From a virus (lineage: Duplodnaviria > Caudoviricetes): a DNA stretch of 41,586 nt. The notes under the pieces were generated by a model that had not been told where the DNA came from, did no database searches, and saw only the letters and a list, made by a program, of their open reading frames with translations. Position numbers and translations under genes: made by a program. The DNA lies in the IMG/VR virus record IMGVR_UViG_3300044580_000351, positions 1 through 41,586 of that record; one strand, 5' to 3'. Shown here piece after piece: positions 5,544-34,354 of the stretch (within the stretch, counting starts at the first letter, position 1; every line of letters starts with the position of its first letter).

Positions 5544-8260
5544 TATTCTCCAAACACCTCCCTGTCCAGAATCATTTTTATGGTCTGTTTTGCGTTTTCC
5601 TTTAGCCTTCTGATATTGGTCAGCGTTTCAAACTGAACGTTAAGGAAATCCACTATTTCCTGCTGTTTTTCAAGAGATGGAAGGGGTATTTGGGCTAATA
5701 ACAAATCACTCGGATTTACTCTGGGAAGTTGTGCGCCTTTTGTATTTTTAATGGCCCATTCAACAAAAAAGCTACTTTTTAATACATAAAAGAGATATTC
5801 CCTTAAAACCTTATCATTAGGTTTCAACACCAATATATCCGTAGAACAAATACCTGATTTATTTGGAAGGTATACCTTTTCTAAATAAGGTCTAAGTTTT
5901 CCGTACAAAATTGAATTGTCGTCAAAAAGAAATTTCTCACTGGAAAGTTCAGATGGTTTTATCAATGTTTCTGTAATCAATGATGTTTTACTCTCTATAT
6001 GTTCGAGTCCAATATATAAGACACTTTCTAAGTTAAGATTTTGAGGATGAATTTTATCATTAACTAAGGAAGCCACTTTTCCTAACTCCACCCATTCCCA
6101 ATCTCCTTCAAAAATACTGTCATCGATTCCAGCTTCAAGAATGGCCTTTTCCATAGCATTGCACTGCTCAATAATAGCCTGCTGCTTGTCAAAGCGGGCA
6201 ACCAGTTCCTGTTGAACGGGAAGAGGTGGAAGAGGGATTTGGATACTATAAAAAGACTCCATATCAATATTTTTTTGTCCAACTCCTCTACCACACTCGT
6301 AAACCTTATCCTCAATGCATTTTAGAATATAATACAAGTATGAAGCAGATAACTGATTGTCATCCTTCGGCTCTATGCTGAAACCACTATCCAACAACCA
6401 GAATCGACCATTAACCATTCTTACACATTCTTCAGACATTCCAAACCTGCTTATGACTATTGAGTCTTCACGATTATAATTGTCTGTATAAAAAGTAATA
6501 CCACCACCACCATATACTGGATACAAACAACCCTCATGGTCTTTTTTTGTTATCCGTTCACCAAATGATACTTTAACAATATCTCTAAGTTCAACAACCT
6601 CCCACTTTTGCTTTCCTTTTATCGTTTTTCTGTACAGCCCAGGGTTAAGGTTATAATCTTTTGCTTTGATTTCCTCAATCGTCGCCGTCCAGCAGAAGTC
6701 ATTATCTATAAAGTCAGGTAGCGCCTCTGTCGGAGCCTTAATCCAGTCAATCCACTTTCTGAATACTTCCACTGCTTTAGGCAAGTTGCCACAGGGCGGT
6801 TCGTAAATGTTCGGGTCATCACCCTGAAAAGCTCCGTTAATTGGTCTTCTCTGGGTTGTTAAGGTAAATCCGTCATCTTTCACATCAACAAACAGCACGT
6901 GCTTTGTGGTGTAAGCATTTTGTTTCTTTGTCTCGTTCCATTCTTCTTTTGTGGGTTTTTCAAAATACAGCACTGTCGTTTTGACACCGGAATACGGCTG
7001 AAATATGCCTGCCGGCATGGAAAAGACAGCTTTCAAATCAAACTCTCGTAAAAGCTTCATGTAGAAGCAACCTGTACTACGGACGGTCATTACGACTTTC
7101 AAATCAAACTCTCGTAAAAGCTTCATGCGTATATTCTTGAATACAGAGGAATTGTCAAACAGAATCTTGTCCAAGATTATAACTATCGCTCTGGAACGCT
7201 TTTTACCTGGTTCAGAAGGTCTCAACGCTGCCATAATATGCTGGATGAACAATGCTTCGTAGCGTTTGGCATGGAACTCAAAAGTGCCAACCCGAGACTG
7301 AGCAAGTGGACCATACGGTGGGTTAGTTAACACTACATCATATTTTTCTTTGTGTTCTAATTGTGCCCAGTTATCAAGACTGTCGGCTTCTTTTAGGTTG
7401 GAATTACCATCATTATGGAGAATCATGTTCATAAGGGCAAGCTTGTAAACGTCAGGCGCTTTTTCTACTGCAAAAAGAGACTCTCTTGTTAATTTCCGGT
7501 AAAGAATTTCAGCTTCATCAGATTTGACCCCATCATATGCGGCAGTAGCTTCATTAACCCTCATTCCTGCTTTTACAAGATTATCAATTTTGCCCTTTAC
7601 TACTTCAAAGGCACGCAGAATAAAACCCCCCGTACCAGCCGCAGGGTCATATATCTTTTCCCCAATTTCCGGGTCAGCAAGCTCTACCATGAAATGGATG
7701 ATGTGGCGAGGAGTAAAATACTGACCGTACTGTTTTTGTTCGCCAAGTTTTTGAACAACAAATTCGTATGCTCTGCCCATAACGTCAAAGTTTTGTTCAA
7801 GTTCAAGGTCTTTCAGCCGCTTTATCAATTCCTTAATAGTCGGATTATACCTTATGCGCCATATATGATTTTTAAAGAGCCGTCTGAAAAGGCTTAAATC
7901 CCTGCCATCGTGGTCCTTAACTTCGGCCAGTTCGGAAAATATGTTTCTTACATAATCGACTATAGTAAACTCTCCATCGTCAGTCTTTACGGTTTTTCCG
8001 TCACTTGCCAAAATCTTTTCTGCCCATGTGGAAAACCTCAGGTGATTTGGTAAATCAGGCACAAATTTAGTTCCATCCAAACGGGCGAGTTCTTCTCTTT
8101 GTTTTTCTCTGTCGTCAAAGAGCTTTAAAAACAAAAAATAGCTAAACTCTTCCAGATACTCGGTGGTTTTGAGAGTATCGTCTCGAAAAATATTGGCAAT
8201 ATCCCAAAGCTCAGAACCAAGCCTGTGAAAATCTACTTTGTTGTTATTATTTTGCGCCAT
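5543..8260 (-). CDS. hsdM: Type I R-M fused methyltransferase-specificity protein (HsdM-HsdS)
   Basis: GQYFTPR, DPAAGTGGF (SAM binding), NPPY (m6A), YNLNP, then two TRD/conserved blocks (IPLPPLPVQQE; IPLPSLEKQQEIV). Confidence 0.92.
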   Translation of the reverse strand: MAQNNNNKVDFHRLGSELWDIANIFRDDTLKTTEYLEEFSYFLFLKLFDDREKQREELARLDGTKFVPDLPNHLRFSTWAEKILASDGKTVKTDDGEFTIVDYVRNIFSELAEVKDHDGRDLSLFRRLFKNHIWRIRYNPTIKELIKRLKDLELEQNFDVMGRAYEFVVQKLGEQKQYGQYFTPRHIIHFMVELADPEIGEKIYDPAAGTGGFILRAFEVVKGKIDNLVKAGMRVNEATAAYDGVKSDEAEILYRKLTRESLFAVEKAPDVYKLALMNMILHNDGNSNLKEADSLDNWAQLEHKEKYDVVLTNPPYGPLAQSRVGTFEFHAKRYEALFIQHIMAALRPSEPGKKRSRAIVIILDKILFDNSSVFKNIRMKLLREFDLKVVMTVRSTGCFYMKLLREFDLKAVFSMPAGIFQPYSGVKTTVLYFEKPTKEEWNETKKQNAYTTKHVLFVDVKDDGFTLTTQRRPINGAFQGDDPNIYEPPCGNLPKAVEVFRKWIDWIKAPTEALPDFIDNDFCWTATIEEIKAKDYNLNPGLYRKTIKGKQKWEVVELRDIVKVSFGERITKKDHEGCLYPVYGGGGITFYTDNYNREDSIVISRFGMSEECVRMVNGRFWLLDSGFSIEPKDDNQLSASYLYYILKCIEDKVYECGRGVGQKNIDMESFYSIQIPLPPLPVQQELVARFDKQQAIIEQCNAMEKAILEAGIDDSIFEGDWEWVELGKVASLVNDKIHPQNLNLESVLYIGLEHIESKTSLITETLIKPSELSSEKFLFDDNSILYGKLRPYLEKVYLPNKSGICSTDILVLKPNDKVLREYLFYVLKSSFFVEWAIKNTKGAQLPRVNPSDLLLAQIPLPSLEKQQEIVDFLNVQFETLTNIRRLKENAKQTIKMILDREVFGE
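7030..7127. repeat. 32-bp exact direct repeat flanking a unique 34-bp insert (repeat-spacer-repeat) inside hsdM
   Basis: CTTTCAAATCAAACTCTCGTAAAAGCTTCATG at 7030-7061 and 7096-7127; insert 7062-7095. The protein shows MKLLREFDLK twice. Confidence 0.95.
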
Positions 8261-16162: not shown

Positions 16163-17734
16163 TTACATCTTAACGTCGAGTTCAACTCCTGACCTAAATT
16201 CGACAGTTAGTTTTTCATCAAATACTGTTATCTTTTCAATAAGCCTTCTTACTAACTGCTCATCATATTCTTGTAATTCAACAGACTGGTCATGTATAAA
16301 CTTCATCATTTCTTCTATACGTTCCCGCTTGCCTTCACGCTCAGCATTCTCGGCCAGTATGTTCTGCTTGAGTTCACGCAGATGGTAAATTTCATCCGCC
16401 ACTTTTTGATAGTCTGCTTTTGTATTGACCAGTTGAAGAAGCTCTTGCTGCAGCTCATTTAGCCTGCTTTCTATCTCTTGAATGGTCTGGTCGTTATCCT
16501 CATTTAAAACTGCCGCTATGTTCTCCTGCAGAACAGTAAGGAAGGTATTTTTACTTTCTAACACCTCATTGATTGCCTTTACTACAGCATCTTGCAGCGT
16601 AGCTTCACTAATAGTCCTAGAGGAGCAATCAGAATCCTTCTCTTCCAAGCGGCTGACACACCGCCAGACGATGGATTTGCATCCTCTGTTGTTCCAATGC
16701 ACTCTGCGGTAAATATCTCCGCATTCTCCGCAATATACAATACTGGATAATGCGTACTTGCTGCTATAAACTCGTCTTTTGCCGCTTTTTCCAGCCTGCA
16801 AATTAGCCCTACGCACCATCTCCTCCTGTACCTGCATGAAAATTTCACGCGGGATAATCGGTTCATGGCTGTTTTCAACGTAATACTGAGGAACAATACC
16901 GTTATTTACAACTCGCTTCTTTGAGAGAAAGTCTATGGTATATGTCTTTTGAAGCAGAGCATCCCCGATGTACTTTTCGTTTTGAAGTATTTTCTTTAAT
17001 GTTTCTGGGCGCCACTTTCGTTTGTTTGCGGCAGTTAGAATACCATCTGCTTCAAGACCACGCGCAATCTGTAATAGACTTGCTCCATCAAGGTATTCCC
17101 TGTATATACGCTTTACAACCTCTGCTTCTTCAGGAACAATGACAAGCCGCTTGTTTTCATCTTTGGTATATCCCAAAAAACGATTGTGATTAACCTGGAC
17201 CTCTCCTTGCTGGTATCTAAATTGGAAGCCAAGCTTTACGTTCTGGCTCAAGGATTGACTTTCTTGTTGGGCGAGGGAAGCCATAATGGTCAACATGATC
17301 TCGCCCTTTGAATCCATGGAGTTTATGTTTTCCTTCTCGAAGAATACCGGGATGTTCTTATCTTTCAGCTGTCGGATGTATTTCAAACAATCCAGAGTAT
17401 TTCGGGCAAACCGGCTGATGGACTTGGTAATAACCATGTCGATTTTGCCCTCCATACAGTCCTCGATCATACGGTTAAACTCATCTCGCTTTTTAGTATT
17501 GGTTCCCGTTATGCCGTCATCGGCGTATATGCCTGCAAACTCCCAGTCTGCGTTACCATTAATATAGTTCGTATAATGCTCAACCTGGGCTTCATAACTC
17601 GTGGCCTGTTCCTCACTGTCAGTTGAGACACGACAGTAGGCTGCAACCCGCAGTTTAGGCCTATCTTCTGCTTTTACGGTGTTTCCAACTCGAGCACGAG
17701 CTGGTATGACGGTTATATTCTTAAGATTGCCCAT
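16163..17734 (-). CDS. Large serine recombinase
   Basis: [19 protein letters not shown], recombinase domain, Zn ribbon CGECG...WRC, coiled coil. Confidence 0.96.
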
Positions 17735-18152
17735 CCGCTATCACCTCGCTTTCTATCAAACTGTAGGCATATTCAGCTTGTGTAAAAGGGTCTTCATAAA
17801 GTGTTTCAGGGGAAGGTGCAGAGAAACGCATCCGCTCCAATGACTTTTTGGGTTCTGCCTTCTCTCGTATTCGCCCAAGCATCCGGGCTCTTTTTATCTT
17901 CTCGGCTTCAGCTTGCTTGAAGGTATCCTCGTCAATTATCGGTGGATAAAAGGCATCCCCAAGGTATCGCTTGCAGGTCAACATTTTTGCGATTGAAGAA
18001 TGGCAACGCTTTATGCCCGCTCGTTTGGCGGCATCCACTAATGAGAAACCTGATATATAGGCATGAAACAGTTCTTTTACCTGGTTCGCCAACTTATCGT
18101 CTATGAATGCTATTCCATTTTTGATGATATAGCCATAAGGTGTATGAGCCAT
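17721..18152 (-). CDS. Small recombinase-domain protein (no catalytic domain)
   Basis: HTPYGY...[16 protein letters not shown]; middle gene of the recombinase triplet. Confidence 0.85.
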
Positions 18153-19712
18153 TTATCTCACCAGCCTTTCCTTTAAGGTAAGCCCACACTTCAGCTTAAA
18201 TCCGATTTCTTCCTGCGAATAGACTATGATGCTCTCAACATACCGGCTGAATATGGCTTCATCAAAGCTATTAATCATATCTGCTTTAGAAACCCACTTA
18301 AGGAGCTGCTCAACTTCAGATACAGCGGTCATACCACTATTCAAACTGCGGGAAAGCAATTTTTTCTTCTCCTTTAACATAGCTGCTTCTGCTCGCAGTT
18401 TATTGCTTTGTTCGCTGAACAAGGAGGAGGAAAGGTACCCCTTGGTTAGTAGGTTTGTCAATACCCGGCTTCGCTCCATGTTTTCCTCCAACATTTGCTC
18501 AAGCTCCAGTATTTCGGTCAGGTTTGCTGAATAATTCAAAGATCGCAAGCTCTTTAATAATGGCTTTAGGATAAACTCGTGTCCGAAGATAAGCTTGTTG
18601 ATCATCGTAATAAATGCCTTATGAATATCATCCTCGCGAATAAAACGCATTGAGCACTTTGCAATATCATGGATGTGCTTTGAACAGCACCAAGCAATAT
18701 ATTGACTTCCACCATAGAAATGAATCCTGCGTTTGAAGTGACTTCCGCACTCTGAGCATATGATTTTGCCGGAAAAAGGATATCTCTTTTGGTACTTACC
18801 GTTTCCTTTTTCTATGCCTTTCTCGTCACCCCGCTGCCTTAGCAATTCATTTACAGCATCAAATTCTTCATGACTGATAATTGCTTCATGGTTCCTACGG
18901 ATCATGATCTGGTCTTTTTCTCCGTTGTTACGATGACGTTTGAAATGGTCATCCGTGTATGTCTTTTGTAAGACGACATCACCGGTATATTTTTCGTTTG
19001 ATAGCATGCCGAGGATAGTAGATGCATTCCATAAGGCAGCCTTTTTAGGTGTTATACCGTCAGCATTCAAGTCATCAGCAATTTTCTGTGCTCCTTTGCC
19101 GGATAAGGCTTCAGAAAATATTCGCCTTACGACAGCAGCCTGTTCTTCATTTACTGTCAGTACACCATCTTTATAATCATATCCGTATGGCGGCGATGAA
19201 AGCTTAAATGTACCATTTCGGAAACGACGCTGGATTGACCACTTATTATTTTGTGATATAGAAATCGATTCGTTCTCTGCTATACTGCTTAAAATGGTCA
19301 GCATCAGTTCTCCGTCCATTGATTGGGTATTGATATTTTCCTTTTCAAAATATAGGAACACGCCAAGGTCTGACAGCTTACGAATAAGTTCCAGGCAGTC
19401 TATCGTATTGCGAGCAAATCGGCTTATAGACTTGGTTACAATAAAGTCAATTCTACCGTTCTCGCAATCTTCAATTAATCGTAGAAGTTCAGAGCGATTT
19501 TCTTTTTTTGTACCTGTGATACCTTCGTCAAAGTATATTCCGGCAAACTCCCAATCTGGATTTGACTTAATAATGGATTCATAGTGAGTTTTTTGGGCCT
19601 CCAAGCTGATTAACTGTTCATCGTTATCGGTTGAAACGCGAGCATAAGCAGCAACCCGTAGCTTAGGCTTAACTAATTTTGCGCTTGGCTCAATTTTTCT
19701 AACCTTTCTCAA
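18153..19712 (-). CDS. Large serine recombinase
   Basis: [29 protein letters not shown]...WCC; TTG start with GGAGGTG RBS. Confidence 0.96.
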   Translation of the reverse strand: MRKVRKIEPSAKLVKPKLRVAAYARVSTDNDEQLISLEAQKTHYESIIKSNPDWEFAGIYFDEGITGTKKENRSELLRLIEDCENGRIDFIVTKSISRFARNTIDCLELIRKLSDLGVFLYFEKENINTQSMDGELMLTILSSIAENESISISQNNKWSIQRRFRNGTFKLSSPPYGYDYKDGVLTVNEEQAAVVRRIFSEALSGKGAQKIADDLNADGITPKKAALWNASTILGMLSNEKYTGDVVLQKTYTDDHFKRHRNNGEKDQIMIRRNHEAIISHEEFDAVNELLRQRGDEKGIEKGNGKYQKRYPFSGKIICSECGSHFKRRIHFYGGSQYIAWCCSKHIHDIAKCSMRFIREDDIHKAFITMINKLIFGHEFILKPLLKSLRSLNYSANLTEILELEQMLEENMERSRVLTNLLTKGYLSSSLFSEQSNKLRAEAAMLKEKKKLLSRSLNSGMTAVSEVEQLLKWVSKADMINSFDEAIFSRYVESIIVYSQEEIGFKLKCGLTLKERLVR

Positions 19713-19736
19713 TTTTTCACCTCCCAGGTATGTGAC

Positions 19737-19765
19737 ATATTACCTCTGAACACCTGTATTATCAA
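19737..19765 (-). promoter_or_regulatory. Putative promoter of the recombinase module
   Basis: TTGATA-N17-TAATAT. Confidence 0.5.
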
Positions 19766-19770
19766 GCGTT

Positions 19771-19992
19771 TCAGGGCATTAACTCGGCTCCAAAAGGTGA
19801 GAAAGATTGACGGTTACGGAGGTCGATTTTCACGAACTCCTCTTGTGTAATCAGTCCTACATTCAGCATTTTTTGAAGCAGCATCAGTGAGCGATAATAA
19901 TCATACTCGTTCTGGAGCCTCTCTTCTGTTACGGGCTTCCGCTTGGCAGCAAATTGAGAATTTGAGAGTTCTGTGATTTGCTTCACTTGCAT
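19771..19992 (-). CDS. SHOCT-like small protein preceding the recombinases
   Basis: LQKMLNVGLITQEEFVKI motif; GGAGG RBS. Confidence 0.8.
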   Translation of the reverse strand: MQVKQITELSNSQFAAKRKPVTEERLQNEYDYYRSLMLLQKMLNVGLITQEEFVKIDLRNRQSFSPFGAELMP

Positions 19993-20053
19993 ATGGCATT
20001 ACCTCCTGCCGATATGCGAAAAAACAGCGTAATTCGAACCCCATGAAAAAGAC

Positions 20054-20100
20054 AAAAAAATAAAACCCACAACTCGGAATGGTTACCGTAGCTGTGGGCT
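20054..20100 (-). terminator. Terminator after the endolysin
   Basis: CCCACAGC...GTTGTGGG stem followed by TTTTATTTTTTT on the minus strand. Confidence 0.65.
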
Positions 20101-20114
20101 TATAAAGACTTATA

Positions 20115-20822
20115 TCAACTATATTTTATGAAACCATCAAAACCTGCCGCCTTAAGCTTTTTAAGCATCGATTCGGCATTTGCTTTGGATGAGAATGCGC
20201 CCACCTGAACACGATAGTATTTCTTATCGTCACCTGCAGACGTTTTCGGTTCCGTTTTTTCTGCCAATCCAGCCTTAACTGCCGCACGGAAGGTATCCAT
20301 GCTTTCACCGTGACGTGGGAACCAGTGCATCACATCGGCATGGTTTGATGCAATCCCTTTCTTGTATCCCTCACTATGACAAAGGATGTCATTCTCAGTC
20401 AGATTATAGAGTTTACAGAGATACACGCATAATTCTACTGCTTCAGAAAATACCTTGCGAAAATACGTCGCATCGGATAAATTATCTTCACATATCTCAA
20501 AACCTATATGGGTATCATTCGCTGCACCTCCAGCATGCCAGCCACGATGGTTCCATGGCAATGTCTGATAGGTTGCAATTGAACCATCTGCCAACTTGCC
20601 TATGAACGCACGAACACAAACCTGTCGACCATCGGGTTTGTCTTGATTCCAGTGATTGCCGTATTGATTTTTACCCAACAGGCCATCATCAGGTGCTACA
20701 TAGCGCTTCAACCAAGGATTGTTAGCCCCAGTTGAATGAACCATGATACCTTTCGGCGTTATTGTCCTGCCGGCCTTAAAGCAGGCGTTGTTAGTAAGTA
20801 TTTGTTTTTGTAAATTCATCAC
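20115..20822 (-). CDS. Endolysin: N-acetylmuramoyl-L-alanine amidase (Amidase_2) plus SPOR domain
   Basis: IMVHST, GWHAG, IGFEICED, CHSEG, NHAD; C-terminal YYRVQVGAFSSKANAE...GFDGFI. Confidence 0.92.
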   Translation of the reverse strand: MMNLQKQILTNNACFKAGRTITPKGIMVHSTGANNPWLKRYVAPDDGLLGKNQYGNHWNQDKPDGRQVCVRAFIGKLADGSIATYQTLPWNHRGWHAGGAANDTHIGFEICEDNLSDATYFRKVFSEAVELCVYLCKLYNLTENDILCHSEGYKKGIASNHADVMHWFPRHGESMDTFRAAVKAGLAEKTEPKTSAGDDKKYYRVQVGAFSSKANAESMLKKLKAAGFDGFIKYS

Positions 20823-20846
20823 TTATCACCTCAATTAGAAGCATGA

Positions 20847-22265
20847 TTATAGGTCTGCCGGGTACAGGTGGTAGGTAAATTTCAGATCGCAATATGCTGT
20901 TGATGATGTACCGTTGCTTCCCATGCGAATGTACAGACCGTATCCTGTAGGAACCCGAGCCTGCCGCATTTCAATTTGAACATGCTGAGCTTCAGCACTG
21001 CTGTCTGTTCCGATTGGCGTACTCCGACAGATTCTTGTGAAATTCTGTTCATCGTTTGAAATATACAGGTCTAGCTCCTTTTCGCTTGTATCCGATTGTC
21101 GGCAAAGGGTTATCAAATGGCAGTCATATCTAGTCGGTGAAAGATTTCCCCCTTGTCCTCCAATAACTACACTCCCAATAGGCAGTATCGTGTGTAAAGG
21201 CCCTCTGACACTGTTGGTACCACCCGCACCAGAGACGTTCCCTGACAGAATGTATCTCACATGTGGAGCACGGGTAAAAGCAATGATGCTCGCTGCTGCA
21301 GTTGAAGTCAGTGTCAAAGCAGTGGTCACATCCTCAGCTTTTTCAAGCAAAAACAGGCTCTCACCAGGAGCTATGGTTGTATCACCTACAGAAAACCTCT
21401 GACTCGTCCAATAAGCAGTACAAGATGGATGGGGATCTGTCCCTGTGCCGTAGGCAATGTTTGCATCATCTTGGACACCTCTAATGGCTTCAGCAAGTTT
21501 CTTTACGGTGTCACGTAGATTGTCTTGTATAAGCACCTGGACATTGTTATCAGTCGGGCTACCCAAAGCTGTAACGAAAGTATATGTTACCGGGCCAAGT
21601 ACAAGATTGTTGCCAGATGCTATGCTTGAAAATGTAATGGCCGCTCTGCGACTTGCCATATCTGGGGCAGTAGCCGTTTCCACCGGGTGCCAATGATTGA
21701 GTAGAATCCCTGTTCTTTGGTATAGCGTATTTTGCATATCTCCAAGTAGATTGTAGGTATCACCGATCTGTGATGTGGCACTGACTAAAAGATTGTGCGT
21801 TGTATTTAGTAGCGCATAGTTACTATTTAGTAAGTCGTATATAAGATTCAGTAGGCTGTTTGTTTCATCAACATCGAGTGCAGCTAAGGCCGACAAAACC
21901 TGATTTAACCACTCCTGCGCGGGTGGCTCCGGTGGCTCGACTATACCGTCAGCAAGAGCCTCCTCAACGATAGTGAGTATTCGTACACTTTTCCCGACTA
22001 CTTCACCTTGTACTACCCTTATCTCAAGACGTCCTACACCAACAATCTCTGTATCGGCAGAGTTGGGAGACCATGTCAAAACACCATCGGCATAGCTTGT
22101 GACAACGGGATAAGCAATTCCATCAGGCCTTTTGTATATTGCGTTTAAGGCCGTGCCCGGATATTCATCACCAAGCAGGCTTGAGACATCAAACTCAATT
22201 TTACGAAAATGATGCTCTCCACGCCGTCCAATAAACACAGTTGCAACTTTTGTTAAGTCTATCAT
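20847..22265 (-). CDS. BppU-like N-domain, coiled coil and beta-rich C-domain (putative fibre/receptor-binding protein)
   Basis: GRRGEHHFRKIEFD...KRPDG...LTW...DT...GRLEI...KS pattern, heptad Leu repeats; ATGA overlap with holin. Confidence 0.6.
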   Translation of the reverse strand: MIDLTKVATVFIGRRGEHHFRKIEFDVSSLLGDEYPGTALNAIYKRPDGIAYPVVTSYADGVLTWSPNSADTEIVGVGRLEIRVVQGEVVGKSVRILTIVEEALADGIVEPPEPPAQEWLNQVLSALAALDVDETNSLLNLIYDLLNSNYALLNTTHNLLVSATSQIGDTYNLLGDMQNTLYQRTGILLNHWHPVETATAPDMASRRAAITFSSIASGNNLVLGPVTYTFVTALGSPTDNNVQVLIQDNLRDTVKKLAEAIRGVQDDANIAYGTGTDPHPSCTAYWTSQRFSVGDTTIAPGESLFLLEKAEDVTTALTLTSTAAASIIAFTRAPHVRYILSGNVSGAGGTNSVRGPLHTILPIGSVVIGGQGGNLSPTRYDCHLITLCRQSDTSEKELDLYISNDEQNFTRICRSTPIGTDSSAEAQHVQIEMRQARVPTGYGLYIRMGSNGTSSTAYCDLKFTYHLYPADL

Positions 22266-22696
22266 GTTTCATCACCATCCGATGGTGGCTCCTCATCATG
22301 CCCGTGAAGCTGCTTAAGGACAGCTTTGAGCTTTTCAGGGATGGGTAGTCCAATGTGTCCTGCGTTTTCAAGGATAGAAATACCCTCATTACTTAAATAG
22401 AAGAAAATTATCGCCGTTCGCAGGGCACCTCCGTTCTGACTTCCTAATATCTGAGTGTCTAAAATGTGAGCGATACCCACCAGCACAAAGATGAGTACCT
22501 TTTTAAAGATACCTTTTGCCCCAATTTCGCTTGACAGCTTTCTATCAATAATTGCGCAGATCACTCCTGTCAGGTAATCAATGGCAACAAAGGCGATAAG
22601 CGCGTAAAGAAAGCCGTCCAGTCCACCCAGGAACCAGCCAAGGAAGCCTCCAATAACTGTGAGCGCTGTCTGAATCCAAGCCCATATCGTTTTCAT
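22262..22696 (-). CDS. Phage holin (toxin secretion/phage lysis holin family)
   Basis: IDYLTG...LSSEIGAKGIFKK...NEGISILENAGHIGLPIPEKLK; TM helices. Confidence 0.93.
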   Translation of the reverse strand: MKTIWAWIQTALTVIGGFLGWFLGGLDGFLYALIAFVAIDYLTGVICAIIDRKLSSEIGAKGIFKKVLIFVLVGIAHILDTQILGSQNGGALRTAIIFFYLSNEGISILENAGHIGLPIPEKLKAVLKQLHGHDEEPPSDGDET

Positions 22697-22726
22697 GATC
22701 AATACCTCCAATCTAAATTTGTATAT

Positions 22727-22760
22727 AGAAAAGCACTCCCATTTGTTGTGAGAGTGCTTG
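22727..22760 (-). terminator. Hairpin/terminator between tail and lysis genes
   Basis: AAGCACTC (22731-22738) / GAGTGCTT (22752-22759) with a short T-run on the minus strand. Confidence 0.55.
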
Positions 22761-22773
22761 TAAAAATAATGGT

Positions 22774-25245
22774 TTATAGAGTCAATAGCAAGTCATGGAG
22801 CTGGTTCATCACATCCGCTCTCGGGCGTCCGGTTCCAATGGGCAGCCATGTGACAGGCGGGATATCAAAAGTCGATGAATTATCGAAACCGTTAATCATT
22901 GTAACAACTGACTCAATAGCCCTTCGAAGCTCAAGAATATGGAATGGCCAATTCTTGACAGTGGTCTTTCCAACAATGATTTCCTCGCTCCAGTTTATCG
23001 GTGTCAGGCAGTGGTAATTGCGCACTGTGTTCACGGCAGTTCTGAGGGTCTGAATATGTGCTGCTTTCACATGTGTCAGGTTTGCGGTAATCTCCTCAAA
23101 AGCTGATGGCAGTATCGTAAATGTACGGGTAACCTCCGAACTTGCTGACTCAATATCACTGTCTCGACATCTGAAAGTAACGGTATGATTCCCGGCAGCC
23201 AGTGTTGCTGCCTGGTATATTGTTTTGACACCATTTCCCAGATAACCACCAACGGAGAAAAATTCAGGGTTGTCAACACTATTATGCCAATCACCGGAGT
23301 CAATCCTTACTTCCACAATCTGCAGCTGACCATCCGGCTCGTTGCCCGTAGTAATCATAAAGCGCGGTTTAGTGTTATAAGTCGAACTGCCGGACATCGG
23401 GCAGCTGATTACTGGTGCGGCAGGTGGACTATTTTTCTTTACCGCATTGCTAAGTACATAAGCAGAAACTGCATCTAATACATCCGTTACACCAATTCGG
23501 TATCGAGTATACATTCCAGCTATCGAAGATGCATTTGTCTCGTAAGTCCCGGAGGTCGCGCTTGAAGTAACAATCGCCAAAGCCTCAAAAGGAGACCAGT
23601 TTGTACCATCCGCAGAGGTAGATCTCTGTATGACATATTGCTTTATGGCACTGGTTCCTGGTACCGTACCGCTCCATGAGAGTGTTACAGTGTTGATTTC
23701 ATAAATGGCAGGGGAAGCGGTAAAGGATGAAGGCGGCATAGGCAGTGTGTTTTTACGTACACTGTTGCTCGTTACCTTCCACTCGGAATAAAAGCTCTCA
23801 CCGGCTGTCCCGCGAGTCCTTATCCGGAATCGGCGATAATTGCCACGTGTGGCAGGTGGGCTGACGCTCAAACTACCGCTTGTAGCAGATGTATTCACTG
23901 TAGTTAAAGCCATCCACTCGCCCCATGTGCTGTTATCGACCGAGTCACTGTATTGTATTTCATAGGATGTAATGGCATTGCCCGCTCCGCTGGCTGCACC
24001 ACTCCATGACAAAGTTACATTTCCTTCCGCTACTGTTGCACTCACTGTGCAAGAGGTTGGCGCTGCACAGGCAGTAATATCGCAATAGATGCTGTTACTA
24101 ATCTTCTCTGATGAGAAAACATCGAGATTATCTATCGTCCAAATACCAAATTGCGTATATGTGCCTGGAGTTCTTGATACATTTGGTGTATAACTGCCGC
24201 CACTTGAAGACAAGGTTAGAGTGGCTAAAACACTCCATGAACTCCATGTACTGTTATCCGTGGATGTCCTACTAGCAATCTGATATCCCTTGATAGCACT
24301 GGTTCCGCCAGAAGCTCCGCTCCATGTCAGTGTAATGGTCTCGTTACTGTAGTTCGAAGGTGAAGCAACTGCTGTGGTGGGTGGGTTTGGTACTGTATTT
24401 CTTCTGACAGAATTCGTTGATACCTTCCAGCCAGAATAATAGCTCGCTCCTGCCGCTCCACGTGTCCGCACCCGGAATCTACGGTAATTGCCTCTTGTGG
24501 AGGACGGTGAAGTTGCAACACTTCCGCTGGTGGCAGACGTAGAAACAATAGTAAGTGGTATCCACTCACCCCATGTAGCATTATCCGTCGATTCGCTATA
24601 TTGGATTTCGTAACCGGTTATTGCATTGTTTGTTCCACTTTTTGCGCCGCTCCATGATAAAGTGATACCACCTTCAGAGAGTGTGCTACTTACTGAACAG
24701 GAAGTTGGTGCCCCACAGGCTGTTGTACGGCTTGCCCAGTTGATGGTCAGTACAATCTTGCTTAAATCATCTCTGCCTGTAAAACCCATATAATTAACAG
24801 TGCTAGAGCCGCAATCAATAAACAAGCAGTTGCTGGCTCCGCTCCCGATGGAGTCTATCAGGGCAGTGGAAATAGTAATATCTTTTGCGCCTTGACCCGC
24901 CGGAATAGTGTAATTATATCCAGTCGTTACCTTTACAGGTCTACTTGCAGATACATTTGAATTAGATCCAACGGCTGGAATTCCATATTGATTTCCTGCA
25001 TAAAGCGTCATGGTTCTGGCAGAACCCCAATCACCTGCTGCCACGCGATTTAAGTGAAGGCTGGCAGATGTGGGATAATATCCGGCATAGGTATTCCTAA
25101 TACTGGTTAGATCAAAAACCATGACACCAACATTCTCATAGTTGTTAGCCTGTGTATATACTCCTTGCCTTACATTTGGCGTAACTCCTGGAATCCAGCT
25201 TCCGTTTCTCCATGTACATGCGTTAATGGCTTGATAAGTTGCCAT
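22774..25245 (-). CDS. Tail-associated Ser/Thr-rich protein with fibronectin-III-like repeats
   Basis: Four TLSWSG...Y-I modules arranged ABAB with a 216-aa period. Confidence 0.8.
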   Translation of the reverse strand: MATYQAINACTWRNGSWIPGVTPNVRQGVYTQANNYENVGVMVFDLTSIRNTYAGYYPTSASLHLNRVAAGDWGSARTMTLYAGNQYGIPAVGSNSNVSASRPVKVTTGYNYTIPAGQGAKDITISTALIDSIGSGASNCLFIDCGSSTVNYMGFTGRDDLSKIVLTINWASRTTACGAPTSCSVSSTLSEGGITLSWSGAKSGTNNAITGYEIQYSESTDNATWGEWIPLTIVSTSATSGSVATSPSSTRGNYRRFRVRTRGAAGASYYSGWKVSTNSVRRNTVPNPPTTAVASPSNYSNETITLTWSGASGGTSAIKGYQIASRTSTDNSTWSSWSVLATLTLSSSGGSYTPNVSRTPGTYTQFGIWTIDNLDVFSSEKISNSIYCDITACAAPTSCTVSATVAEGNVTLSWSGAASGAGNAITSYEIQYSDSVDNSTWGEWMALTTVNTSATSGSLSVSPPATRGNYRRFRIRTRGTAGESFYSEWKVTSNSVRKNTLPMPPSSFTASPAIYEINTVTLSWSGTVPGTSAIKQYVIQRSTSADGTNWSPFEALAIVTSSATSGTYETNASSIAGMYTRYRIGVTDVLDAVSAYVLSNAVKKNSPPAAPVISCPMSGSSTYNTKPRFMITTGNEPDGQLQIVEVRIDSGDWHNSVDNPEFFSVGGYLGNGVKTIYQAATLAAGNHTVTFRCRDSDIESASSEVTRTFTILPSAFEEITANLTHVKAAHIQTLRTAVNTVRNYHCLTPINWSEEIIVGKTTVKNWPFHILELRRAIESVVTMINGFDNSSTFDIPPVTWLPIGTGRPRADVMNQLHDLLLTL
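23430..24723 (-). repeat. Diverged internal tandem duplication (about 648-bp unit)
   Basis: TACGAPTSC...RGNYRRFRVRTRG at about 24723 versus TACAAPTSC...RGNYRRFRIRTRG at about 24075. Confidence 0.8.
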
Positions 25246-25256
25246 AAGAAGTCACC

Positions 25257-25760
25257 TCACTCATATACCGCCGACACAAGGGAATTCACCAAGCCACATA
25301 GATTCGTATTCAACCGTGTATCCGTGATATTGTTCGCAGCTATAGATGTTGCAGCTGCAGGCACTAAAACGTCTGCAATGCAAAGCTCATATACATCAGT
25401 TGTTCTTGTGAGTGCCGGTGCAGTTGGTGTAACTGCAGGAGTTCCGGTAACAGCAGCTAGCTGAATACTCCGGTTGATCATGCTTAGCCGAACCACAATT
25501 CTGTCAATGCGAGGATTGCTACCGTTTGCAGTAGCAAGTGGAATATTCATGGCATCGGTATTTTCATACCTATAACCATTAATCCATGCACTTCCTGCTG
25601 CCACGCTCACCGCTAAACCGGTTCCAGGCGATACCTGCAAGTTTGTAGGAGTGGTATAAAATATCCCATTAGAGACAAGGCTCCCGAAATACGCTGCAAA
25701 ATCCGTGGCGTCATAGACCCTGTCTCCGTCAGATGAGTTAAAGAAACCGCTTTTCTCCAT
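25257..25760 (-). CDS. Phage baseplate/tail structural protein
   Basis: SGFFNS..GDRVYDA..FA.YF, GSAWING, RIDRIVVRL, ITDTR...CG.V motifs typical of siphophage tail proteins. Confidence 0.8.
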   Translation of the reverse strand: MEKSGFFNSSDGDRVYDATDFAAYFGSLVSNGIFYTTPTNLQVSPGTGLAVSVAAGSAWINGYRYENTDAMNIPLATANGSNPRIDRIVVRLSMINRSIQLAAVTGTPAVTPTAPALTRTTDVYELCIADVLVPAAATSIAANNITDTRLNTNLCGLVNSLVSAVYE

Positions 25761-25775
25761 ACTGATTTCCTCCTG

Positions 25776-27710
25776 TTAAGCTCTCGCGTAAGAGCATGAT
25801 ATAATATAAAACCCTGTAGGCAATGTGGAAGCGGCGGCGTTCGCCACCACACCGTTTGCGTTAATCGTAATCGGCATACTAGTACCACTGCCCCCGACCG
25901 TAGTAGCAACAGAACGTACAGTCGAGTAGGGGTAAAAGTTCGGGTTTGTCATTGTTAGAATCGTTCCACCGGAGGGAACTCCCGAAGCCCCTACGTTAAT
26001 CTGCATCCCGATAGAAACAACACCCTTGTTTACAAATGACATATTATAGCCCATGCTCACGCCACTACCAAGTGAGTAAGTGAGGGATGTATCAGCTTCC
26101 TGAGCCATTTTTTCGGTAGTGACAGCTCCGTTTGCAATTCTCGCACCTGATACAGGCGCATTGTAAACATTATTGATACTTGCTGCAAAGGTGCTTCCTC
26201 GTACTGCGGCTGCAATATCCGTAAGATTACCAAGGGGAAAACTCAACCAGTTAGCCTGGCCAGATGGATTGTTAAACAGGAAAACCGATATTACATAAAA
26301 CGTCATGGTGTTCCTGCTAATGAAAAAGCCCATAGCCCGCTGGTATCCATTTCCTGTGTTATCGCCATTATGCTTCACTAAAAAGACATGCCCATCATCA
26401 CTAGGCTGGTCGCTGAACTTATTTCCGCTCCATGAGGTGAAATAAATGGTATCTCCGGGAACCATATGGTGCATGGCATACTGCCCGATAGATATTGTTC
26501 CTTCACCTACATTTACCTCAAGAGCAGGAAGTTTACCGAATAGATTGTTAATTGTATCTGTAACGGTGTCTCCTTGAATCTTCGGATTTACATCCTCTAA
26601 GTCACCTAGGACTTCTACCACCTCGGATATTCCTGACGGAGCTTGCAGGGCTGTTTTAACCTGGCTCATATCAGAGTTCAGCTTCTGTGCAATGGAAAGC
26701 ACCGACTTTCCGAACGTCACACCGATGCTTAAGCCAGTTGCATCGTATGTTTCCTCGATTTCCATGATCCGGGTTGACATTGACACGCCCCAAGGCTTTG
26801 AGATTACTTTGACAGTCTGGCCCAAGTCAAAATCCGTTTTATAGACAAGGTTACCGTGTGGATTGACAGACACATCAAAGGAATATCGTATGGCCAATTC
26901 ACTTAGCCTGCTTTGCCCTCGGAAGGTCAATGCCTCTGTGTATTCTGTACCGAAATCATCCTTTCGCAGGTCTTTGGCATCAACAAATATCTCACGGCGA
27001 GCCTCACCAGAACCGCCAGTAATAGCGACGAATGTGCGTTCAGACCCCTCTCCCTCGCCACCGACAAGTGCAGTGTTGGCATAATCCGCAGCACTTTCTG
27101 TGTATGTCTGCTCTGTCAGATTCTCGTATTCCTTAGAGAACACTGCTTGAGAAGCTGTGCCTTTGTACAGCGTTACCGTAAATGTCCCCTGGGCTGGTGT
27201 AAATACAGTCTTAATTCCGATACCCGAAGCGTCACAGAGTTCCATAACCGCTTCCATCAGGTTGCGATACGATATCTGTGTATTGATTTGCACGTCAAGT
27301 AACGGCGATGAGAATGAAATGCCCGTAATTTGCCGTGCTGGATCGGAAGGATTAATAAGGTTCTTATTAAGAAGCTGTTCCACACAAGATGACAGGTCAC
27401 CTGTGAGAGACTCCGTCTCCCAGATAATCCGTCGGGCCAGGAAAGAGGTAGCAAAGCGTCCAGTAGCTGTGATGATCTCACTGTCGGTTTGGGACAGTTC
27501 TAAATGCTCTATAATACCGGCTTCTTCATCGTCACTCTTCCAAAGAATGTTACCAGCCTTAAGAAGTGCAGTATTCTCCGGCGTGGCTATAGCTTTCAGT
27601 TCAAAAGAACCGCACTGAGAGTAGCGCCGTGTCCAACGCAGGTATTCGAAAGACTCTACAATACCAGCAAGTTGCCGGCTTGAATTAAAAACATATAGCT
27701 CCATACTCAC
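25776..27710 (-). CDS. Siphovirus ReqiPepy6 Gp37-like tail protein with C-terminal extension
   Basis: LRWTRRYSQCGSFEL, ALVGGEGEG..R, RREIFVDAKD, DFDLGQTV; follows Dit. Confidence 0.85.
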   Translation of the reverse strand: MSMELYVFNSSRQLAGIVESFEYLRWTRRYSQCGSFELKAIATPENTALLKAGNILWKSDDEEAGIIEHLELSQTDSEIITATGRFATSFLARRIIWETESLTGDLSSCVEQLLNKNLINPSDPARQITGISFSSPLLDVQINTQISYRNLMEAVMELCDASGIGIKTVFTPAQGTFTVTLYKGTASQAVFSKEYENLTEQTYTESAADYANTALVGGEGEGSERTFVAITGGSGEARREIFVDAKDLRKDDFGTEYTEALTFRGQSRLSELAIRYSFDVSVNPHGNLVYKTDFDLGQTVKVISKPWGVSMSTRIMEIEETYDATGLSIGVTFGKSVLSIAQKLNSDMSQVKTALQAPSGISEVVEVLGDLEDVNPKIQGDTVTDTINNLFGKLPALEVNVGEGTISIGQYAMHHMVPGDTIYFTSWSGNKFSDQPSDDGHVFLVKHNGDNTGNGYQRAMGFFISRNTMTFYVISVFLFNNPSGQANWLSFPLGNLTDIAAAVRGSTFAASINNVYNAPVSGARIANGAVTTEKMAQEADTSLTYSLGSGVSMGYNMSFVNKGVVSIGMQINVGASGVPSGGTILTMTNPNFYPYSTVRSVATTVGGSGTSMPITINANGVVANAAASTLPTGFYIISCSYARA

Positions 27711-28558
27711 ACCCCCAGAAATTGCGGTCGATAGTAAAGACTGACTTCAAGCAGTTCCATATTGACCGAGGCATCATAACGCAGGATGTTTTGCCCAGCG
27801 GCAAGCTGAAAAAAGGTTGAACCTGTATCCAATAACGAAAAGGCATTTGTTTCTGTTGAACCGTCCACACTAACCACACGTTTACCGGCAAAGTGGGTGT
27901 ATACCCTTATTTCATCACCGGCATTCATTGTGGTAAGCAAGCGTATATACTCGCCAGTGTCTATATTTAAAAGCTCAGGATTCGTGACTGTTCCAAGTGC
28001 CCGGAACACAATCTCACACCCGCAGGCCACATCACCGATATTGTTCACAGTGATGATCTGGCTTGGCTGGCGCATCCCGAATTCCATGCCTGTTTCAGGT
28101 ATCTCCAGTTCAAACTCGAACATAGGTATCCACGATGCCAGCTCCTGCCGCACCTCGTCAGGTGTTTCAAAAAATGGCGATGGACAGAGTAAACTAACAA
28201 AGAAGTTCGGTATTCGATGTCGGGTGGATACCGTGAATCCGGCCTCCTCCACAACGCAAGCAATCTGCCGCTCTCTATAAAGAAGCGTACCTTTTAGTTT
28301 CGGGCTGAATATATTTAAAAAGTGCTTTCGAAGCTCATATGCTTCATCGGGCGTATCCGCAATAACCGTACCTTCTAACGTAATGTTTCTCATATCCAAA
28401 GTGGACGAGATATAAAAAGCACCGTCTTGATCCGGTGCCTTGAAGGTATTTATGGTTTGGCGGATATTTCCCGTACCATCAATTTTAGTTATAAAATACG
28501 GACGGCTTTGTTTAAGTGTAATGCTCTCGCCGTCCGCGTTCGTGTATGTTAACTCCAT
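27707..28558 (-). CDS. Distal tail protein (Dit, Sipho_tail)
   Basis: QDG...LDMRNITLEG, LLCPSPFF, FFQLAAGQN; follows the tape measure. Confidence 0.88.
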   Translation of the reverse strand: MELTYTNADGESITLKQSRPYFITKIDGTGNIRQTINTFKAPDQDGAFYISSTLDMRNITLEGTVIADTPDEAYELRKHFLNIFSPKLKGTLLYRERQIACVVEEAGFTVSTRHRIPNFFVSLLCPSPFFETPDEVRQELASWIPMFEFELEIPETGMEFGMRQPSQIITVNNIGDVACGCEIVFRALGTVTNPELLNIDTGEYIRLLTTMNAGDEIRVYTHFAGKRVVSVDGSTETNAFSLLDTGSTFFQLAAGQNILRYDASVNMELLEVSLYYRPQFLGV

Positions 28559-28570
28559 GTGCCGACCTCC

Positions 28571-31315
28571 TCAATATGCCAGAGCTAGTTTACGGGACAG
28601 GTTCTTAAACTCCCGTGCCAGTTCCTTCTCGGACAGGGCTTTAGGTGTAACTACGGAAATACTCTGGTTTATAACGGTTCCGTTCGCTCCGAGAGCCCCT
28701 GCCCCTCGAGATAATGAACCTGCCAAATTGAGCCCTGCATCAACCTCGAAGTCAGTGGGTATTGCCTTTCTCATGTCTTCACTGACGCGATCCATCGCCT
28801 TCTCGAAGCCAACACCTATGCCAAGCCCCATATTGCTACCCAGTTCAGCAAACAGGGAGGAGGGGCTGTGTATGCCGAAGAAGTTCTTGATCTTGGTCAT
28901 TACATTTCCGAAGAAACCGGATATCTTTTCCCACAACCACGCAGCGGCATCATTTATGCCCTGCCATAACCCTTTAATGAGATCAAGACCGGCTTTTGCC
29001 ATCTTAGGGATATTCTCAATGATAGCCTTGACAATAGCCACAATGATTTGTGGAATTGCCTTAACAACCTCCACAATGATTGTTGGCAAATTGGCTATCA
29101 AAGCCACCAGCAGCTGGACTCCTGCAAGAATAATCTTGTCAATGTTTCCAAGTATGGCGCTCACAAGTGAAGTTATGATTTTAGGTATAGCCGCCACAAC
29201 AGTAGTAATGATCCTCGGTAGATTCTGGATAAGTGCAACCAGCAGCTTGATGCCTGCTTCAACGATCAAAGGAATTGCTTCAAACACAGCAGCAAGAATG
29301 CTGTCGATAATCTCAGGTATTGCCTCCACAATTGCATCAATAATCTCCGGCAAAGCATCCACAAGGGAAGTTAAAAGCTCGATGCCTGCCTGCACAATCT
29401 GGGGCAGGGCATCCAGTACTGCTCCAACAATTCCGTCGATAATCTGCGGCACGGCCTCCAGTATCTGTGTAATGATGGATGGAAGCTCCTGCACAAGCGA
29501 CACGAAAAGAGCTACACCAGCTTGCACAATTTGAGGTATGTTCTCGGTAATCACCGTAACCAACGCCTGCACGATCTCCGGTATGACTGCGACGATTTGG
29601 GGAATGGCTCCTGTTACAAATCCGATGAGCGCATCAATTACTGCCGGAAGCGACTCAATCAGCACCGGTATAGCTTCAACAATACCCTGGGCCAAGCCGA
29701 GCATCAGCTGAAGTGCCGCATCAAGCAGCAATGGTAGACTTTCAATGAGAGCCGTCACAATCTGAGTTACAGCAGAAACAGCTGCCGGGATAAGCTCAGG
29801 CAGCGCATTAGCAATGCCGGTAACAAGTGTCGCTATCATCTGGACTGCCGCTTCCACTATTGCAGGAAGGTTGGCTATAATTCCGTCGACCAGCGCCAGT
29901 ACAAGCTGAAGAGCACCCTCCGTGATTCCTGGAAGCGCACCTACCAATGCCTGAAGGAGTGTATTTATAATTTGGCTGGCCGCGTCCACGATGATGGGCA
30001 GGTTATCAATTATCGCAGAGCCTATGGAGGTTACGATGCTCAAAGCCAATTCTATAATATCGGGCAGCTGTTCCAGAAGCATATTTACAATGCCCCCCAC
30101 GGTATTGCCGATAACCTCACTGATTTTCGTCCAATCACCATTGGCTTCATTCAGTCCCCGGGTAAACTCACCCAACAGGCTTACACCATCGTCTGCTAAC
30201 ACCTGAAGCTGCGGGAGGAGCACCATACCAAGAGCATTCTTGGCTGCTTCACCTCCAGACTTGAGCCGCTGCATAGAATCATCAAACTTACCGAGGGCTT
30301 CCAAAGATTCCTGACTCATAACAGCCCCCATCGCTTTGGCTTCCTCGGTAAGTTGATTTATACCTTCTGATCCTTGTGCAATAAGAGGATTTAACTCTTG
30401 GGCACTCTTGCCGAAAAGCTGCATGGCAAGAGCATCTCTCTCGGTTTCATTTGCTACGTTACCTAGTGCATCGATAGTCTCCCAGTACACAGTTTCTGAA
30501 TCCCTGAGGTTACCGTTGGCATCGGTTATAGAAATGCCCAGTGCTTTGTACGCCTGTGAAGCTGCACCAGTACCCTCGCGAGCCGAGTTCATGGAACGTA
30601 TATTTCTCGCCATACTGCCGGTTAAGGTTTCCATTGAGGTATCTACCAGTTCGGCGGCATATTTATATGCTTGCAGTGATTCAGTACTCATGCCGGTAAC
30701 AGTTGACATGGTGAGAATATCGTCCGCATACTGTGAAGCACCAACAGTCATATCGGTGAGAGCTTTAGCCGCTCCAACCGCAGCCGTTCCAATAGCTGCA
30801 AACGCGGCACCCATGGCCACACCTATTCCTTTTAACGCCGAGCCGAGTTTTTCAAGTTTATTTGAGGACTCCTCGACATCATCAACGGATTCTTCTACGA
30901 CATTGCCGAACTCATCAACCTTTTGTCCTGCATCGTTATACCCACGATTCACATCACGGAGTGATTTTTCGTTTTCAGCCAGCTCACCCTCCATGCCGTT
31001 GAGCTCAGCCTGTGCTTTATTGAGTTGTATCTGCCAGTTTTGCGTGCGTCTGTCATTTTCACCGAAGGAGGCGGCGGCGTTGTCCAATGCAGCCTTTAGT
31101 GTAGCGATTTTCTCCCGCTGTGCATCTATTTCTTTATTCAAAACCGCATTTCGGGCGGTAATCGCCTGAACAGATTTGTCATTCTTATCAAATTGACTGG
31201 ATACGAGTGTCATCTCGCTACCCAATACTTTAAAGGATTGATTGATTTCCCGCAGGGCATCCTTAAATTGCTTCTCTCCCTCAAGACCAATCTTCAGGCC
31301 AAAGTTATCCGCCAT
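28571..31315 (-). CDS. Tail tape measure protein
   Basis: MADNFGLKIGLEGEKQF start, coiled coil, 11-aa periodic LP-I repeats, FGIHSPS near the C-terminus. Confidence 0.93.
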   Translation of the reverse strand: MADNFGLKIGLEGEKQFKDALREINQSFKVLGSEMTLVSSQFDKNDKSVQAITARNAVLNKEIDAQREKIATLKAALDNAAASFGENDRRTQNWQIQLNKAQAELNGMEGELAENEKSLRDVNRGYNDAGQKVDEFGNVVEESVDDVEESSNKLEKLGSALKGIGVAMGAAFAAIGTAAVGAAKALTDMTVGASQYADDILTMSTVTGMSTESLQAYKYAAELVDTSMETLTGSMARNIRSMNSAREGTGAASQAYKALGISITDANGNLRDSETVYWETIDALGNVANETERDALAMQLFGKSAQELNPLIAQGSEGINQLTEEAKAMGAVMSQESLEALGKFDDSMQRLKSGGEAAKNALGMVLLPQLQVLADDGVSLLGEFTRGLNEANGDWTKISEVIGNTVGGIVNMLLEQLPDIIELALSIVTSIGSAIIDNLPIIVDAASQIINTLLQALVGALPGITEGALQLVLALVDGIIANLPAIVEAAVQMIATLVTGIANALPELIPAAVSAVTQIVTALIESLPLLLDAALQLMLGLAQGIVEAIPVLIESLPAVIDALIGFVTGAIPQIVAVIPEIVQALVTVITENIPQIVQAGVALFVSLVQELPSIITQILEAVPQIIDGIVGAVLDALPQIVQAGIELLTSLVDALPEIIDAIVEAIPEIIDSILAAVFEAIPLIVEAGIKLLVALIQNLPRIITTVVAAIPKIITSLVSAILGNIDKIILAGVQLLVALIANLPTIIVEVVKAIPQIIVAIVKAIIENIPKMAKAGLDLIKGLWQGINDAAAWLWEKISGFFGNVMTKIKNFFGIHSPSSLFAELGSNMGLGIGVGFEKAMDRVSEDMRKAIPTDFEVDAGLNLAGSLSRGAGALGANGTVINQSISVVTPKALSEKELAREFKNLSRKLALAY

Positions 31316-31328
31316 ACCGTTTCACCTC

Positions 31329-31532
31329 CTACAATCCCGTCGGGATAATATCATCGATCGTTATCGTTTTCTTTGGCTTCTCGATACCGTGCCACTGCTT
31401 ATGGCAGGCCCACAAGTCAAGAAACAGACCGATGGGCATAAGCCAGAATTCATCTGCGCTCATGCCCATCTGCACTGTGCCGTAATAGTAAAGTCGGGTA
31501 AAGACCTCATCGTCTGTTACCCGACTTCCACG
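31329..31532 (-). CDS. Tail assembly chaperone -1 frameshift extension (gpGT-like)
   Basis: A-AAA-AAC heptamer at 31532-31538; the -1 frame reads RGSRVTDDEVFTRLYYYGTVQMGMSADEFWLMP...IIPTGL*. Confidence 0.8.
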   Translation of the reverse strand, partial: RGSRVTDDEVFTRLYYYGTVQMGMSADEFWLMPIGLFLDLWACHKQWHGIEKPKKTITIDDIIPTGL

Positions 31533-31903
31533 TTTTTTGATGCTTCTTCTTCGCTTTCTATATTACGCTTTGTGCCTTTGAACATCGCCTCAGTGATAGC
31601 GCTCTTATATGAAGCCAGTTCCAGTGGTGAAGTCAGAAGCTCTACATCCTCTTCTTTGAGAATTTCTTTAGGATTATCCTTGTTCTTTAAGTTGTGAACG
31701 AGGATAGACTGATTTGCCAGCAGAGTGATCAGCCACACGATCTCGTCCAGAGCCATTTCGAAGTTTTCAGATTTCATCAATTTATCGCCCAGATTCTCTA
31801 AGCCCCCGTAGCGGCGAGCAATCTCTTTTGTGGCTCGGGTGGTAAGTATCAGCTCAAATTCCATACCACCAATATTGATAACAGCACTTCTTTCTGTATC
31901 CAT
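31517..31903 (-). CDS. Tail assembly chaperone (gpG-like)
   Basis: Between major tail and tape measure; ends with a slippery site. Confidence 0.85.
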   Translation of the reverse strand: MDTERSAVINIGGMEFELILTTRATKEIARRYGGLENLGDKLMKSENFEMALDEIVWLITLLANQSILVHNLKNKDNPKEILKEEDVELLTSPLELASYKSAITEAMFKGTKRNIESEEEASKNVEVG

Positions 31904-31915
31904 CTTTCAATCCTC

Positions 31916-32506: not shown

Positions 32507-32509
32507 ACA

Positions 32510-32851
32510 TTATTCCTCCAATCCATAGTTTTTTGCCACATCGATGGCATAATGGTGATAGCCGGTATCGTCCTCGTGTCCGATATACCGTCGCTCGGTT
32601 ACTATGAAATCTGCATTCAGCAAGGCAGCAATGATTTGCTTTTTACGCAGCTGATAATTCGCCTTTGAAAACAGTGATATCCGCGCTTCCTGTACCTCAA
32701 AGCCAGGACGGTTATCTGCATGAACTTCGAAAATGTCCGAAAGCGGGAGAATGACTACATATTCATCCGGCGCCATACCTGAAAAAACGCCGGTCTCCAC
32801 AGGAAGTGGCACGGCGGATATAAGGGTATTTAGTTCCGATAAAATGCTCAT
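32510..32851 (-). CDS. Tail completion/terminator protein
   Basis: Position before the major tail gene; EDDTGYHHYAID motif. Confidence 0.75.
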   Translation of the reverse strand: MSILSELNTLISAVPLPVETGVFSGMAPDEYVVILPLSDIFEVHADNRPGFEVQEARISLFSKANYQLRKKQIIAALLNADFIVTERRYIGHEDDTGYHHYAIDVAKNYGLEE

Positions 32852-33279: not shown

Positions 33280-33284
33280 ATATC

Positions 33285-33620: not shown

Positions 33621-33621
33621 A

Positions 33622-34342: not shown

Positions 34343-34354
34343 ACTGCACCTCCA

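Follow-up and report, generated by a model that had tools for sequence, protein, structure and literature searches.

Introduction

The closest described counterparts of the locus analysed here are products of the CRISPR integrase Cas1-Cas2 acting outside its own arrays. In the accessible part of one report on off-target integration, the sites used in vitro resemble the CRISPR repeat in part and are cut one repeat length apart (PMC6698737). For Escherichia coli type I-E, 'neo-CRISPR' units arising in vivo are attributed to Nivala, Shipman and Church (2018; doi 10.1038/s41564-017-0097-z) in the accounts given by 10.1101/148544, PMC7054753 and PMC11788318. The available text of the first of these calls the natural frequency of non-canonical integration unclear, and factors that suppress off-target integration are discussed in the sections available of PMC9456107. 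Among main texts drawn mostly from outside the subscription journals, no report of the present locus or of natural scars in restriction-modification (RM) genes was found.

Here, we describe an in-frame insertion in a prophage-borne type I RM gene, hsdM-hsdS, found in a single virus contig of 41,586 bp that was analysed over its entire length and is referred to below as the window. We consider it likely, with a probability of about 0.7, that a type I CRISPR Cas1-Cas2 once integrated a spacer off target into a repeat-like part of hsdM and that this insertion is the scar left behind.

A duplicated 32-mer around a 34-bp insert

An exact repeat search of the 41,586-bp window identifies two identical 32-mers with 34 bp between them (Table 1). 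This pair stands alone, the longest other exact repeat being 14 bp or less, and no second scar-like near-duplication with a period of 55-84 bp is seen elsewhere in the window. The 34 bp have no local source: nowhere else in the window does an ungapped match exceed 19/34. The junctions are compatible with readings of 32+34, 31+35 and 30+36 (any repeat inside the 32-mer is allowed), and the 32+34 and 30+36 readings both amount to 66 bp around a common centre. On the + strand the insert encodes VEATCTTDGHYD and on the - strand, within HsdM, it reads VVMTVRSTGCFY. The gene has stayed open because 66 bp is a multiple of three and because no stop codon is introduced in this orientation.

A preliminary description of the locus had claimed an exact 32-bp duplication around 34 bp of unrelated DNA, a net gain of 66 bp that keeps the frame and adds 22 amino acids, and boundaries loose enough for 30+36 to fit as well. 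The identical copies and the poor local match of the insert, the 905-aa open ORF and the junctions bear these claims out. The hairpin that it had drawn on the duplicated unit does not hold up, as the 32-mer folds at -4.5 kcal/mol (z -1.37, with 20 of 200 shuffles folding equally well), compared with -12.8 to -18.7 kcal/mol for real I-C-type repeats.

Table 1 Features of the insertion and its surroundings (positions within the window)
Feature	Position	Strand	Remarks
Fused type I HsdM-HsdS, 905 aa	5543..8260	-	Bears the insertion; N6-methyltransferase and specificity domains
Second 32-bp copy	7030..7061	-	Predicted source of native helix and strand of the methyltransferase core
Foreign insert, putative pseudo-spacer, 34 bp	7062..7095	+	36 bp if taken as 7061-7096
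First 32-bp copy (gene direction), putative pseudo-repeat	7096..7127	-	Central 30 bp is 7097-7126; single copy in homologues and metagenome contigs
Would-be leader end in the 32+34 reading	7128..7135	-	Weakly leader-like; 5.4% of sites score equally
HsdR, type I restriction subunit, 741 aa	8275..10500	-	Open, full length; adjoins hsdM-hsdS
Prophage genes	16163..41546	-	Three serine-recombinase-family ORFs, then lysis, tail, head, terminase

The gene bearing the insertion and its prophage context

The domains, motifs, fold and neighbouring HsdR of the ORF that bears the insertion identify it as a type I RM methyltransferase, an HsdM-HsdS fusion, with its catalytic motifs intact (a SAM-binding motif at residue 205 and NPPY at residue 313). 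The RM cassette, which has close relatives in several unrelated thermophiles, sits among accessory genes on the left of the prophage, with the recombinases and virion genes on the right. No cas families were detected among the 42 ORFs scanned in the window, and the flanking genes point to Bacillota or Clostridia only.

The three consecutive serine-recombinase-family ORFs (16163-19712, - strand; 523, 143 and 519 aa) separate the lysis genes from the defence cargo. Matches to BnzB are divided between two ORFs (11246-12088, E 1e-54; 12116-12607, E 1e-8), and BnzA is matched in part at 12604-13152 (E 2e-10); together these regions (11246-13152, - strand) look like pieces of a degraded Bunzi-like defence system. 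An HNH endonuclease ORF and a DUF1413 ORF are located between the portal and large terminase genes (37604-38535, - strand). The left contig end carries an IS3-family fragment (1-800) whose closest copy is 94% identical, and an intact ISL3 transposase gene is present at 3134-4312. Two AT-rich genes without close relatives, one for a lipoprotein-like product with a Listeria-Bacteroides repeat (869-1861, + strand) and the other for a zinc-ribbon protein that forms a single-member cluster (2235-2831, + strand), may represent host flank.

Metagenome contigs that match the M part diverge at the M/S border, at about 6590-6720 and leftward, and these loose ends would fit an exchange of specificity domains in the fused HsdM-HsdS cassette. 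The 905-aa protein itself has been clustered under an unrelated 56-aa representative, an oddity of database clustering.

The insertion is derived

The 22 additional residues are absent from all of the best 120 homologues aligned (of 510 found), as the preliminary description had expected of HsdM relatives; apart from the insert, around 13 positions distinguish the M part from its closest relative. In seven of eight public metagenome runs, contigs assembled from other samples contain an empty joint that leaves out exactly 66 bp and has 32 letters assignable to either side, and the eighth run, having neither the joint nor cover of the insert, is uninformative in both directions. Since no aligned homologue has the insert and the empty joint recurs in these seven runs, comparison of the sequences indicates that the 22-residue insertion is derived and that its target pre-existed in the ancestral allele.

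The filled 905-aa protein is recorded on one contig only. No contig piece covering the insert was present among the pieces listed from the eight runs, the best-matching public run contained 0.65 of the words, and none of the RNA runs searched contained the stretch. A search for a second filled allele, using the junction pattern with any insert at the site, returned a single hit in metagenome contigs, unrelated and due to chance, and nothing in viral contigs. The 32-mer and close hsdM relatives were likewise absent from the viral contigs, where a single relative at 23% was found.

Origin of the insert

Reading VEATCTTDGHYD from the strand opposite hsdM requires one ambiguous base on each side. 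We took this peptide to be a surface-protein repeat before any pattern was tested. A degenerate pattern made from its last ten residues then matched three of 185,579 genomes, against 0.07 expected: two Candidatus Coproplasma metagenome-assembled genomes (MAGs) and one Erysipelotrichaceae MAG. All of the matches are in frame and inside long repeat-bearing ORFs, and one ORF that was scanned also has BspA-type leucine-rich repeats. In both Coproplasma genomes (two of the three matched) the match extends to 12/12 residues, for which about 5e-5 would be expected by chance over six frames, and the Coproplasma copies are identical to the insert at 29-31 of 36 nt with the differences at third codon positions, though most of this agreement was forced by the pattern itself. 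A looser motif matched one of 201 genomes, the one already found.

Because its opposite strand encodes VEATCTTDGHYD, with a 12/12 match to a Coproplasma surface-protein repeat, the insert appears to be a cellular gene fragment and not a CRISPR repeat; most simply, it would be a piece of coding DNA from a surface-protein gene. Searches for the donor itself gave no exact copies in genome, metagenome or viral collections (from which the source's own records may have been left out), none with three or fewer mismatches in 401 genomes and none in two examined in a further search. Phages contained no copy of the insert and plasmids only chance 18-mers, and the surface-protein motif had no matches in viral contigs. 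In the position of a PAM, the homologous copies, which are not the donor, imply several different trinucleotides.

The repeat to which the motif ATCTTDGHYD belongs is Cys/His-rich, around 46 residues long and tandemly arranged in surface proteins (L003:1495-1944, L004, L005). No Pfam family matched it convincingly in the one protein scanned.

Geometry and site compared with real CRISPR arrays

For comparison, 80 Cas1 loci were fetched: the 30 best by PF01867 from the order of one Coproplasma genome, which we take to be Christensenellales, the 30 best by TIGR03641 from its class, and 20 picked by hand. Cas1 by PF01867 is found in 92 of 251 genomes of the order, and TIGR03641 in 46 of 300 genomes of the class (one genome unscored). 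An array finder recovered a full repeat in 49 of the 80 loci, the other 31 being excluded from the repeat counts, and 31 repeats were used for ranking after exclusion of the 16 of 47 distinct repeats that exceed 32 nt. We presume that repeats of 32-33 nt beside Cas1 are type I-C and those of 30 nt beside TIGR03641 Cas1 are type I-B.

In these arrays, 36 bp is the spacer length for 122 of 294 spacers between 30-nt repeats and 34 bp for 25 of 64 between 32-nt repeats, and 66 bp occurs more often than any other period in the I-B-type set (121/294). The duplication and insert thus match the modal lengths of Clostridial type I arrays, meaning arrays of the lineage and not of the host itself, and the ranges that the preliminary description had given for types I-B and I-C (repeats of about 30-32 bp, spacers of 34-36 bp) are indeed seen in Clostridia.

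The target site also resembles real repeats in part. In a permitted register it matches a 30-nt repeat (L047) at 18/30 positions and a 32-nt repeat (L080) at 17/32, and only 337 of 41,555 window sites are as repeat-like when the best of 31 repeats is taken in both orientations and all permitted registers (top 0.8%). Aligned in exact register with I-C-type repeats, the 32-mer shares 13-16 matches; a matrix of I-C repeats ranks the site 291st of 83,110 and a leader-plus-repeat matrix 70th of 83,094. The last 11 nt of the 32-mer match I-C-type ends at 7-9 of 11 positions (top 0.12%). The ten 5' bases are unmatched to I-C-type repeats, 38% of sites doing equally well, and another common 30-nt repeat family gives 10-12/30 only. 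The sizes and the 3' end are not independent evidence, because the feature was originally chosen by them.

Proposed off-target integration and its rivals

Integration by Cas1-Cas2 would account for the locus as follows. The complex of a Clostridia-class host, probably together with Cas4, would take up cellular DNA, probably of the host's own chromosome, as a prespacer; the integrase would attack both strands of the hsdM site 30-32 bp apart, and gap filling would then double the target. Either an I-B-like (30+36) or an I-C-like (32+34) system fits. This reading, which the preliminary description had proposed, is supported in part: the insert is derived, the sizes match Clostridial type I arrays and the site is more repeat-like than 99.2% of those in the window, but the hairpin invoked for it gives no support.

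Target duplications made by transposases are much shorter and are accompanied by the element. A repair-type templated insertion is unlikely, though it needs no CRISPR protein at all: a break with staggered ends, or a fork stalled within hsdM, would have picked up or copied 34-36 bp of another gene by way of 1-3 bp of microhomology before resuming 32 bp back. The base flanking the insert is the one that a donor would supply (the G of a Val codon in 5/6 homologous copies, and the last C in 5/6), an agreement that is otherwise a coincidence of about 1 in 16, and no host CRISPR is seen, the material being one 41,586-bp virus contig. Such an event, however, does not lead one to expect the 66-bp period or a target that ranks within the top 0.8% by repeat-likeness in a permitted register, and recombination is disfavoured because the junctions share only ~1 bp with donor-type sequence. 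That same short junction bears on an assembly or library artefact, in which the unit would have entered this one metagenomic contig through a chimeric molecule or a wrong path taken through the assembly graph, since a graph loop needs long words common to the donor and hsdM. A chimera would need two junctions in one molecule and, judging from the behaviour of assemblers, would have to outvote the empty path. We regard an artefact as quite improbable, even with the filled allele on one contig only, no spanning reads seen, the empty allele dominant elsewhere and no second filled allele in metagenome or viral contigs; it offers no reason to favour CRISPR geometry or a repeat-like site, and the window is free of N.

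The roles of the two parts might also be reversed, the 36-mer being the repeat of a class 2 CRISPR system and the 30-mer a spacer against hsdM, with the spacer-repeat-spacer order produced by a graph loop or by recombination with an array. The 36+30 geometry is that of five of the arrays fetched, whose repeats the 36-mer matches at 15-16 of 36 positions, but 16/36 is at the level of chance (p 0.055, or 0.38 with the ends fixed). The 36-mer has no exact copy in the genome, metagenome and viral collections (again with the source's own records possibly left out), gives three weak Rfam matches of which none is a CRISPR family, has no fold, and is at the same time the 12/12 protein match described above. 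As a CRISPR repeat it was rejected: known coding copies score 16-19 against 36-nt repeats, and because coding copies of the motif resemble such repeats as much as the insert does, this reading fails and we consider it extremely improbable.

Consequences for the methyltransferase

An alignment-based model of the filled HsdM-HsdS (pLDDT 80.8, pTM 0.85) keeps the HsdM fold, with 5ybb as the best match (E 1.4e-25); prediction from the single sequence gave a pLDDT of 35. In the alignment-based model, residues 380-397 are of low confidence and the second copy of the duplicated unit forms a helix (399-406) and a strand (408-414). The 22 extra residues are thus predicted to loop out, with the second copy restoring the native helix and strand. 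As low confidence is to be expected wherever no homologue covers an insert, the model suggests tolerance and nothing further, and on this footing the filled allele is probably a tolerated, near-neutral prophage passenger. The preliminary description spoke of an edited defence enzyme; the in-frame insertion stands and nothing beyond it is borne out.

Could the scar function as an array of one spacer borne by the prophage? In the hsdMS mRNA the repeat-spacer-repeat has the orientation of a type I-C crRNA, with 8 of 11 handle bases, and in principle could be processed into a guide running antisense to a surface-protein gene of the host. Canonical repeats, a hairpin, a leader and cas genes, which characterise functional CRISPR arrays, are not found in the window unit, and we hold this to be very unlikely. 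Were it true, the host processing enzyme would cut the mRNA of a restriction system and release the guide, and a CRISPR misfire would have made a new regulatory link between three systems that phage could carry to new hosts.

Read as an off-target integration, the scar adds a natural example of CRISPR memory writing acting as an insertional mutagen. As the common period of 66 bp is a multiple of three, such misfires can stay in frame and add a loop read from the opposite strand of an unrelated gene. Lying in mobile defence cargo, the scar would also imply that a cell capable of type I adaptation and bearing Coproplasma-like surface proteins once harboured the prophage, a clue to the host. Neither the genome that carries the closest copy of IS3 nor its family yielded Cas1 (0/2), and the three genomes with the peptide motif had no Cas1 match (0/3). 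On its own the scar raises no new question; it is useful as one entry in a survey of such scars, from which the specificity of integrases in uncultured lineages could be mapped.

Comparison with known systems

In domain content, motifs and fold, the cassette is like known type I RM systems with a fused HsdM-HsdS and an EcoAI/EcoKI-like HsdR, its closest relatives being 83-93% identical over the M part; it differs in the 22-residue insertion, which among the 120 proteins aligned is peculiar to that of the window. With Clostridial type I arrays the unit shares its lengths (32+34 or 30+36), its 66-bp period and a 3' TTGAAA or central core in register. Unlike those arrays, it has two copies only, with no more than 60% identity to any real repeat, and the window lacks a strong hairpin, a clear leader and cas genes.

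The nearest parallels lie in off-target integration. At non-CRISPR sites used by Pyrococcus furiosus Cas1-Cas2, the accessible text likewise describes partial resemblance to the repeat, with paired cuts 30-31 bp apart (PMC6698737); there, however, an archaeal enzyme acted on plasmids in vitro, whereas here the scar is in an assembled contig. The E. coli neo-CRISPR units, as far as the available accounts describe them, likewise consist of a spacer-length insert flanked by a target duplication as long as the repeat, and lie outside arrays. The present unit differs from them in being natural, without induced Cas1-Cas2 and with host Cas proteins not observed, in its Clostridial I-B/I-C geometry and in its in-frame position within a prophage defence gene. 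The mechanism is already published; what is new is the identification of the insert as a piece of a surface-protein gene.
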